From Carcharhinus longimanus (Eukaryota): DNA of 64,000 nucleotides. Made by a program: the position numbers and the translations under genes. Every line of letters begins with the position of its first letter. The stretch's first letter is position 1. The notes under the pieces were generated by a model. It was given only the letters and a program-made list of their open reading frames with translations. It searched no databases and had not been told where the DNA came from. Shown here in pieces: positions 24,441-26,509 of the stretch. The stretch lies in assembly GCA_030264375.1 (NCBI GenBank), contig JASCQW010000072.1, positions 27,589,049 through 27,653,048 on the forward strand. Reading direction: 5' to 3'.

Positions 24441-24957
24441 GATGATGAGGTTGTGCAGCATGCTTATGGCTACCAGAAATTGACACACATGCGCAGCCAA
24501 GTACTGTAGTGCCCTTCTGGATTAGATCAAGCAATGGAATCATTGAATGTGTGTGACAGTACAGCTTTACTGTTATGCACACCGTGCATCTGTGCATGGG
24601 TTACACAACTGAGACGCGAGTTGTCACCAGATTGCTTTTGTTGCTCAGTAGCCACCTTGTGCTTTACTAAGATGGTTCAAATGCCACTGGCAGAGCAGAC
24701 GGTACGACAGTTAACAAGGTACCAGGCTTCAATCTGATTGAATTGCTGCCTATGGTCACATAACAGCTGAATGTTAATGAAATGGAAACTCTTTTGGTTC
24801 TGGTATATAAGGCAGGGTAGACATATGGTGCCCACAAAGTGCATTCACTTAAAGACAACAAGGGAAGCCTGCAATTCTAGCAAACCTGGGTGTTTACTCC
24901 ACCTGCTTGTCTCTGGTAAGAGAAAATGAAATGTAGTTGCTCGCTTGGAATAAAGAG

Positions 24958-25252
24958 TGGCATGGTGGCACAGTGGTTAGCACTGCTGCCTCACAGCTCC
25001 AGGGACCTGGGTTCAATTGGGTGACTGTGTGGAGTCTGCACGTTCTCTCTGTATCTGTGTGGGTTTCCTCCCACAGTCCAAAGTGTGCGGGTTAGGTGCA
25101 TTTGCCATGCTAAATTGCCCCCTTAGTATCCTGGGATGCATAGGTTAAAGGGATTAATGGGATAAATATGTGGGGATAGGGCCTAGGTGGGATTGTTGAC
25201 AGTGCAGATCCAATGGCCAAATGGCGTCCTTCTGCATTGTAGGGATTCTAAG
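24958..25252 (+). mobile_element. Full-length HE1-type V-SINE with CR1/HER1 tail
   Basis: A-box TGGCACAGTGG, B-box GGTTCAATT, V-domain, tail GGCCAAATGGCGTCCTTCTGCATTGTAGGGATTCTA; TSD AAAGAG (24952-24957, 25253-25258). Confidence 0.9.
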
Positions 25253-25262
25253 AAAGAGACTC

Positions 25263-25559
25263 TTTTTTTTTTGTTTACTTTATTCCAATCCAATCAAGTC
25301 AAATTAAAGCCAATTCAGAGTCCCAACAAGTTGGGACATTCCCGATCCAAGATGACAAGACTGGGTTCTCACCTCCTGATCTACATGATCCAAGCTGATT
25401 GGAGGAGGTGTAGCTCCTCCTCCAAGACTTGATCTAATCTGCATCTTAGCCAAAAGGCCGAGATGCCGCTTTAAAAAATTGCTTCAAATGAAGCTGAAAT
25501 GTAATCCAATGACTTCAACCAAGTGCAGCATGTCGACACTACATTTGATCTTTGCCAAA
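25263..25559 (-). mobile_element. U2 snRNA-containing polyadenylated retroposon (SINEU-like), 5'-truncated
   Basis: Minus strand: TTTGGCAAAGATCAAATGTAGTGTC (22/25 to U2 nt 16-40), then TCTCGGCCTTTTGGCTAAGAT (21/21 to U2 nt 7-27), non-U2 body, AATAAA and A-tail; TSD AGACTC (25257-25262, 25560-25565). Confidence 0.75.
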
Positions 25560-26509
25560 AGACTCAATTACTTCATTTACACGACAATGGACAGCAAACT
25601 GAAAAGCTGCAAAATAGGTTCAATGCAACCTGCTAGTGCAACCATATTCAGCAGGAATTGGTTTGTCTGGAAGCCAAAGTCAAAGCAAAAGTCTTCAGAA
25701 CCTCCATACCACTGCCTGTAGGCTTTTGCAACTTGAACCGCGCATAGAAAGCACCACACACTTGCGAAAATGTTGCAATAGCCAGAAATAATCAACTAGT
25801 TACTAAAAAAATCCTTTTAAGTAATCATGGTGGGCTGTCTTTCCTCCAGCAGAATGTATGCTCAGCTGTGCGAGGTTATGAGAGGACCTTGGCTGCAGCA
25901 TGAGGCCCAAAATAGTAGCATTGGTATCAAATCAATGTTGCAGGCCGATTGACATCATTTATTTGCACTGCAAAATTCCCACAGACATCCACTATTTGTG
26001 TTTGTGCAAATGGTGAACCAATATGACTTCCAGCACTATTCACTCCACAAGTGTGCACGTGCACTGTGGGCGTCAGTTTGGAACTCTTAAGTGCATTCAC
26101 AGCACTCAAAAAAAAATCAATACTGATGAGCCCAATTTCTCTCCCATGGCCTCATTCAATTACATCTCCCAGCACTGGGGACAATGGTGATCACCATTTG
26201 GTCCCTTAGTCTATGGGTACATCTAAAATGTGCAATGGTACCTGTTAACTGGAAAGAACAAGACATCCTCATTGCAATGAAGTACAGGGTGTGGTGAGCT
26301 CACATGACTGGAGGCCCCTGCTCTGCTGAAGACAGGACTCCAAGACCACTTTTTCAAAAGAATACCAGTCCATACTTTAAATGTTGCTCATATCACAACA
26401 CGAGCACTAAAGGAAGAAAATTGAAACAAGTTTGCACTTGTCCACACCCTAAACCAATACCACAATATGCCAACAAAGGAAGTAACTTGGGTAGCTGCAG
26501 CACTGAGAA

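Follow-up and report, generated by a model that had tools for sequence, protein, structure and literature searches.

A family of non-autonomous retroposons assembled from parts of U2 snRNA in a shark genome, probably mobilized by a U2-headed Tx1-type LINE and possibly transcribed from U2 gene promoters

The window, a stretch of 64,000 nucleotides from the genome of Carcharhinus longimanus (contig JASCQW010000072.1), carries at positions 25263-25561, on the minus strand, one copy, truncated at its 5' end, of a family of non-autonomous retroposons composed of U2 snRNA pieces. An earlier note, made from the letters of the window, had proposed just such a mosaic, U2-headed family, and its landmarks were recovered in a comparison with L031, the best U2 gene of this genome (188 bits in Rfam). 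The match to U2 nt 16-40 at 25535-25559 agrees letter for letter (22/25) and the head extends further, to nt 14 at position 25561; the second U2 segment is identical over nt 7-27 (21/21); and the reported poly(A) signal and A-tail (25263-25276) are present. U2 is the only Rfam family found in the element (a stem-loop I piece), with no match to 5S or 7SL, and no long open reading frame lies inside it. The parts are listed in Table 1.

Table 1. Parts of the U2-derived element in the window, in the order of the element from its 5' side, with the candidate target site duplication (TSD)
Feature	Position	Strand	Remarks
Candidate TSD, 5' copy (AGACTC on the plus strand)	25560-25565		2 nt shared with the U2 head; weak against chance
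U2 snRNA head, nt 14-40	25535-25561	-	5'-truncated here, nt +1 being reached elsewhere in the family
Diverged antisense copy of U2 nt ~13-39	25506-25531	-	Predicted to form a long hairpin with the head
Short hairpin and T/A-rich linker	25469-25494	-	Possibly the tail remnant of a first monomer, judging from old-subfamily tails
Second U2 segment, stem-loop I, with a perfect match to nt 7-27 (25443-25463)	25441-25466	-	Extended closing stem; heads the second unit
Hairpin module 1	25387-25435	-	Start like U2 nt 24-31, close like U2 nt 44-60
Hairpin module 2, duplicate of module 1	25344-25382	-	11-nt deletion in the window copy
U2 stem-loop IIb-like hairpin (25320-25337) and decayed stretch	25285-25337	-	Decayed stretch corresponds to the U2 Sm-site region in the old subfamily; significant only in the old subfamily and the sister family
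Short A-tail preceded by AATAAA (25279-25284)	25263-25284	-	Read from the sequence
Candidate TSD, 3' copy	25257-25262		Read from the sequence

Both copies of the 6-bp TSD proposed in the earlier note exist, but the duplication is weak against chance. Because its last two nucleotides overlap the U2 head and repeats of at least 5 nt occur in about 3% of shuffled flank pairings (1.85/60), it is plausible rather than strong. The claim that removal of the element restores a host transposase reading EVIESL was not confirmed; a stop codon follows two codons after EVIESL and another repeat lies beyond it. Nor did the searches bear out a transposase host: 14 stop-free host pieces gave no Pfam match (best E 0.046, under the cut-off), 12 read-through host frames likewise had no match in Pfam, and two host frames had none in the PDB (best E 0.19 and 0.48). 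The repeat that received the element is old, shows 66-82% identity to 25 other places, and spans 25562-26100 and 24570-24840 of the window; some of its translated words may recall the pol of LTR retrotransposons, for which the database searches gave no support. Just past the 3' TSD copy, another abundant repeat is inserted on the plus strand (24960-25245), which we take to resemble shark HE1/V-SINE.

The element belongs to a large family. A 24-nt body pattern with up to two mismatches had 3,331 matches in the 2.68-Gb genome and none for the control, a count that is a lower bound for the family, and a first search with the whole element gave 3,270 candidates. The best 39 other places share 89-92% identity with the window copy over nearly the full element, which measures approximately 310 nt with its A-tail. 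Complete copies (n=38) average 92.6% identity to their own majority sequence, and in 32 of the 38 the head joins the body at the same point within three mismatches. The window copy agrees at 273 of 284 positions with the majority of its 29 closest relatives, which themselves average 96.6%, and has an 11-nt deletion. The family falls into older and younger subfamilies. For the older one, 1,371 candidates were found, of which 30 loci have 89.6% identity to their own majority and an identical layout. The stretch or part of it also occurs, as near-identical words, in 20 sequencing runs from 12 studies and at least nine organisms, with no RNA run among those listed.

Structure at the ends was scored in a genome-order sample comprising 90 of 100 listed exact body-pattern matches (one already taken and the last nine were dropped). 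A U2 head was present in 55 copies and the 5' end was hidden by N in 24. The remaining 11 were classed as truncated, although two of them begin at U2 nt 3 and 7 and have internal deletions. The head is thus present in 55 of 66 resolved copies. Its starts range over U2 nt 1-25 and pile up at +1 (exactly +1 in 9/55), the start for which the earlier note had proposed to check full-length copies. With N runs very often inside family copies (24/90 sampled), incomplete assembly may hide part of the family and make it look older than it is. At least 97% of copies lie away from the U2 site, and 30 dispersed copies have no non-U2 flank in common at the junction; the supposed insertion at non-U2 sites therefore holds for most copies. 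The earlier note had counted single-copy status and copies devoid of TSDs or A-tails as evidence against a family. The element is multi-copy and A-tails are present, but most copies are without a TSD: 46 of 60 scorable copies have none of 5 nt or more, and a TSD of at least 9 nt occurs in 8 of 60, against 0.2 expected from shuffled pairings.

The spacer and body, taken in the earlier note as unrelated to U2 or perhaps LINE-derived, both look U2-derived. The first ~30 nt of the ~70-nt spacer form a diverged antisense copy of U2 nt 10-39: against the inverted head, 16 of 30 positions are identical and nine more are G-U-compatible, and the resulting 25/30 is reached by 2 of 2000 shuffles. In plain alignment the antisense arm is nearly exact in the old subfamily (0/1000 shuffles), borderline in the young one (36/1000), and not significant in the middle subfamily or the window copy. 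Similarly, a U2 origin of the 3' part of the body is not significant on its own in the younger subfamilies and the window copy, where 84 to 444 of 1000 shuffles reach the score, but it is in the old subfamily, in which this part aligns with U2 nt 40-105 (46/64; 2/1000 shuffles as good). A sister family, found at L218:322-536 (minus strand) beside a copy of the main family, consists of a single unit of ~230 nt with 2,890 candidates (e.g., L375-L404). It aligns with U2 nt 1-169 in near-colinear fashion, including the Sm region, and its agreement over U2 nt 44-160 (83/116) exceeds all 1000 shuffles. This sister is one remodelled U2 with a single hairpin module, a module common to the main family. 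Because the sister family and the old subfamily both align to U2, the second half of the element reads as a remodelled U2 as well. Sequence comparison thus suggests that the element is a head-to-tail pair of U2-derived units. Its second U2 segment, which the earlier note tentatively attributed to repeated LINE insertion, more plausibly heads the second of these units. Head-to-tail joints between separate copies are seen directly at four loci (L101, L350, L361, and L363).

In the predicted fold, the antisense arm pairs with U2 nt 13-39, covering the sequence by which U2 base-pairs to an intron's branch point. Subfamily majorities fold much better than their shuffles (z -4.4 to -7.9), as does one individual copy (z -5.4). 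Across the three subfamily majorities, three predicted pairs changed on both sides, seven on one side, seven are broken, 67 are unchanged, and one falls in a gap, so that covariation lends the predicted fold weak support.

A LINE that could serve as the partner is present in the same genome, with 1,405 candidates for one piece of its reverse transcriptase. Its domains are RVT_1, zf-RVT, and a ZCCHC3-type ORF1; APE fell below score in the two broken copies scanned, and relatives of the LINE carry an APE endonuclease. Among these relatives, the most identical pieces are from proteins of Heterodontus (57%) and Scyliorhinus (62%), and one relative is named Transposon TX1 protein. Among 30 loci with LINE 5' ends (two neighbours at one place), 16 carry a U2 head and seven a U3 piece, five of the latter together with U1. 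One LINE subfamily (L173, L174, L175, L178, L180, and L184) has at its 5' end a U1 piece, a U3 snoRNA piece that passes or comes near the Rfam cut-off, and then mostly U2 nt 38-52. Full-length LINE copies take the U2 head along to non-U2 sites, and most copies lie elsewhere than in U2. Family and LINE also adjoin: a family tail lies just upstream of the LINE 5' end in 3/30 loci, a LINE tail just upstream of a family copy in 2/66, and family copies stand at LINE ends in 3 of 20 loci taken for the reverse transcriptase. At one locus (L101), LINE, element, LINE, element, and again element follow one another in a train, and at another (L303) a LINE 3' UTR is joined at U2 nt 40, preceded by U2-type upstream DNA. 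An origin of the body from a LINE 3' UTR was rejected, as in the one LINE family tested only chance words of up to 10 nt were shared; the possibility that the whole sequence is a known LINE's 3' UTR, put forward in the earlier note, found no support there. The suspected link to Tx1-type machinery fared better, given that a Tx1-type LINE with U2, U1, or U3 heads abuts family copies. The common U2 site, the heads, and this adjacency are circumstantial signs from which we consider mobilization of the family by the local U2-headed Tx1-type LINE quite likely.

The common site is seen in the junctions with U2. The 3' target of Keno starts at U2 nt 38 (PMC6136364, available part), and the U2 site is described as common to Keno and Utopia (PMC4640811, available part). 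Two Rfam U2 matches (L059 and L060), found regardless of the junction, proved to belong to the family, each with U2 nt 38 directly behind its tail. A pattern composed of an A-run and U2 from nt 38 onward gave 10 matches, comprising five family tails, four LINE tails, and one ambiguous case. As this pattern itself fixes the junction, all 78 matches of a U2 nt 49-71 pattern were taken instead, of which 52 were U2-derived and 26 belonged to another repeat. Within the 52, family tails before long U2 sequence join at nt 38-39 in all eight cases (seven tagged by script, two of them placed by eye owing to small indels, plus L253), with none at nt 2-37; LINE tails join at nt 38 in four of five (L337 is ambiguous), and one sister-family tail does so too (L270). 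Thus, the link drawn earlier to the site of a U2-targeting LINE near nt 37-40 is borne out for family and LINE tails alike. Such tails followed by U2 nt 38 onward are infrequent overall (2/69 in the genome-order sample and 0/86 in four other sets, with two more by eye), and other junctions occur at U2 nt 29-32 (L097 at nt 29-30, L161) and, in tandems, at nt 2-8. Five plain U2 retrocopies without an element tail also start at nt 37-43 (L264, L334, L057, L344, and L247), and stalling of the reverse transcriptase may therefore help to set the nt-38 boundary. As a separate observation, an unrelated abundant repeat (26 of the loci L305-L335) contains a 21-nt word close to U2 nt 48-68, through chance or capture.

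The U2 3' flanks of tail-U2 copies have no derived variants in common, and their divergence at non-CpG positions is 6.7% versus 4.2% for the bodies (about 5.4% versus 4.3%, counted by hand, when L059 and nt 208 are dropped). Because the flanks are no younger than the bodies and have no common variants, insertion into older U2 retrocopies fits them equally well. An origin of these tail-U2 copies from one drifting master was rejected on account of the lack of common variants and the second U2 type of L059. That second type recurs at L061, L299, L303, L034, and L032, partly as short tandem units, and in L061 a bare A10 separates U2 nt 37 from nt 38. Two small contigs (L058 and L033) hold divergent-type U2 genes, one beside an apparent histone H1 coding end, possibly from a contaminating organism. 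In three similar small contigs (L046, L047, and L048), which may represent an amplified segment, the U2 copy passes directly from ~nt 155 into the 3' flank.

Several copies bear on transcription. One (L243) starts at U2 +1 and continues over the body and the tail to U2 nt 38-191 and the gene's 3' flank. In two others (L136 and L357) the tail is followed by U2 nt 38-46/48 and then by an A-run 15-19 nt past AATAAA, the spacing expected of a polyadenylated read-through RNA. Complete U2 heads number 361. Among the first 30 checked, 28 lead into the body, and no upstream DNA is common to any two of these or to any of them and three U2 genes. In the remaining two, the DNA upstream is of U2 type and the body is missing. 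These 28 headed copies, together with L243, L136, and L357, fit masters located inside U2 genes. In L189, 28 A>G against 2 T>C changes extend over head and body and spare an extra upstream head, indicating that head and body were likely one RNA. A pattern of this sort is expected from ADAR editing of the RNA before insertion, and L189 is likely hyper-edited. Family-wide A-to-I editing was rejected, since the A>G excess (p 0.013) is due to L189 alone and A>G and T>C rates are alike elsewhere. The search for a promoter-bearing master found three candidate places matching the upstream DNA of the main U2 gene, none of them with an element; the U2 array looks collapsed in the assembly, which makes this search weak evidence in either direction.

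Taken together, these observations suggest a cycle in which the LINE endonuclease would nick U2 DNA at nt 37/38, as Keno does, and a copy landing there in a working U2 gene would become a master. Its external Pol II promoter would then yield an RNA comprising U2 nt 1-40, the body, the A-tract, and sometimes the 3' half of U2. The LINE reverse transcriptase would prime on the A-tract, and most copies would be inserted off target and thus promoter-less. Template jumps would supply extra heads from U2, U1, or U3 and link copies in head-to-tail order, likely giving rise to the two-unit structure, and the antisense arm is predicted to hide the branch-point pairing sequence of U2 in the RNA. We lean modestly toward transcription of copies inside U2 genes from the U2 promoter. 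For the model as a whole, a U2-piece retroposon copied by a U2-headed Tx1-type LINE and transcribed from U2 gene promoters, the balance is nearly even and tips just slightly in its favor.

The same family and LINE could also be explained by masters behind unrelated Pol II promoters, the U2 head being maintained or replaced afresh when the enzyme jumps to cellular U2 snRNA as template, for which pairing with the antisense arm may act as a guide, and the nt-38 junctions stemming from dead U2 retrocopies or from stalling of the enzyme on U2 RNA. Extra U2 heads with variable junctions (L008, L131, L141, L151, L189, L199, and L229) and U1 and U3 additions (L005, L024, L223, and L283) show that jumps are frequent. 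Also in favor of this explanation are the identity of the majority head with current U2, the failure to find a promoter-bearing copy, and U2 3' flanks as old as the bodies or older. Such a route was favored for SINEU-2 (Kojima 2015; PMC4494074, available part). Nevertheless, the main head-body junction is fixed (32/38), unlike jump junctions, the edits of L189 span head and body together, the 28 complete copies have no 5' transductions, and plain retrocopies begin at less sharply defined positions than the nt-38 junction. We therefore consider this explanation unlikely, although it deserves serious attention. An ordinary SINE organization, with an internal Pol III promoter formed by U2-derived A-box-like and B-box-like words, is far less probable. 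A loose B-box pattern does match the start of module 1, but a strict A-box pattern has no match, and no tRNA-like part or 5S or 7SL match was found. The T4, T6, and T4 runs inside the element also argue against Pol III: T4 at the very start and T6 in mid-element should stop the polymerase, yet the copies extend over the entire unit and have their ends past AATAAA.

More radical departures would do away with the parasite or with the family itself. The source could be a few variant U2-like RNA genes with their own snRNA-type promoter and possibly a cellular role, the dispersed copies being processed pseudogenes. The folding far beyond shuffles, the near-colinearity of the sister family with U2 through the Sm region, and near-identical words in at least nine organisms are what this would lead one to expect. 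It accords poorly with the sequence turnover among subfamilies, with a two-unit mosaic that ends in a poly(A) signal, with ~50 plain U2 retrocopies versus thousands of family copies, and with copies that occupy the U2 site of the LINE and form trains with it; we regard it as improbable. The view that there is no family, only independent U2-LINE chimeric pseudogenes or LINE 3' fragments, can point to U2-headed truncated LINE copies (L303 and L097). It is contradicted by the fixed internal structure of thousands of copies, and, moreover, none of the 11 head-less, gap-free copies among 90 runs into a longer common element and the LINE 3' UTR has no match, which leaves it with hardly any credence.

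Should the preferred reading, in which copies inside U2 genes serve as masters, be correct, its fullest form would be a superfamily of self-renewing U2-gene parasites in sharks for which U2 is head, promoter, and landing site at once. The promoter would be regained on each homing to nt 37/38, the element's own branch-point sequence would be masked by the antisense arm so as not to poison splicing, and two-unit and one-unit families would each number thousands of copies. This fuller picture is offered tentatively, as one that we think has a lesser chance of being right than of being wrong. If true, it would constitute a second, independent origin of SINEU and an answer to how promoter-less, snRNA-headed SINEs are transcribed. 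SINEU transcription is puzzling because snRNA promoters lie outside the RNA; it was stated as an open question in PMC4494074 and described as still undemonstrated in PMC5786205 (available parts of both). The shark system offers a concrete test, as masters are expected at nt 37/38 of U2 genes with RNA starting at U2 +1. It also extends snRNA-headed SINEs past crocodilians to a lineage with near-identical copies in at least nine organisms. Furthermore, shark phylogeny could draw on the copies as presence/absence markers, and the LINE, which prefers U2 in part, lends itself to mapping of its specificity.

SINEU is given as found only in crocodilians in the available part of PMC4494074, and the corresponding parts of PMC5381603, PMC5786205, PMC4758252, and PMC7245038 name no SINEU outside them. 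No published report of such elements in sharks was found, the search covering publications; Repbase and Dfam, outside its scope, may hold them. The shark family is thus apparently an unpublished variant of the SINEU kind, the likeness being one of features. In common with crocodilian SINEU-1, -2, and -3 and Tx1-Mar, as described in the available part of PMC4494074, it has a U2-derived head, poly(A), a length below 500 nt, and thousands of copies, as well as recurrent 5' snRNA additions, internal T-runs, variable TSDs, and tandem copies. In both systems a Tx1-type LINE, in the shark the probable partner, has snRNA heads of its own, and the sister monomer is, like SINEU-3, a remodelled U2 (PMC4494074). 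Classical Pol III SINEs, in contrast, have a tRNA, 5S, or 7SL head with an internal promoter, which the shark element appears to lack. R2 elements have short internally deleted derivatives; the shark element is no deletion derivative of its LINE, and its gene is a Pol II snRNA gene rather than rDNA. The proposed logic, insertion into a transcribed multicopy RNA gene and use of its promoter, is nonetheless that of R2 and 28S rRNA genes (PMC4494074). Template jumps onto the 5' parts of snRNAs, known from U2 retropseudogenes and snRNA-L1 chimeras (PMC4494074), occur in the shark as well. Such chimeras arise independently, whereas here one fixed structure has been amplified from masters. With Keno and Utopia the family has the same 3' junction, at U2 nt 38/39 (PMC4640811 and PMC6136364, available parts), and the local LINE is like Keno and unlike Utopia in its Tx1-type domains and APE-bearing relatives. 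Unlike either, the shark element is non-coding, has no tail in common with its LINE, and is relaxed in specificity, at least 97% of copies being off target. Compared with SINEU itself, which prefers Mariner-N4 (Mariner-N4_AMi; PMC4494074), the preferred site of the shark family is U2 nt 37/38, its body, apparently derived from U2, includes an antisense arm that can fold back and a hairpin module present in duplicate, and U3 snoRNA pieces are among the additions.
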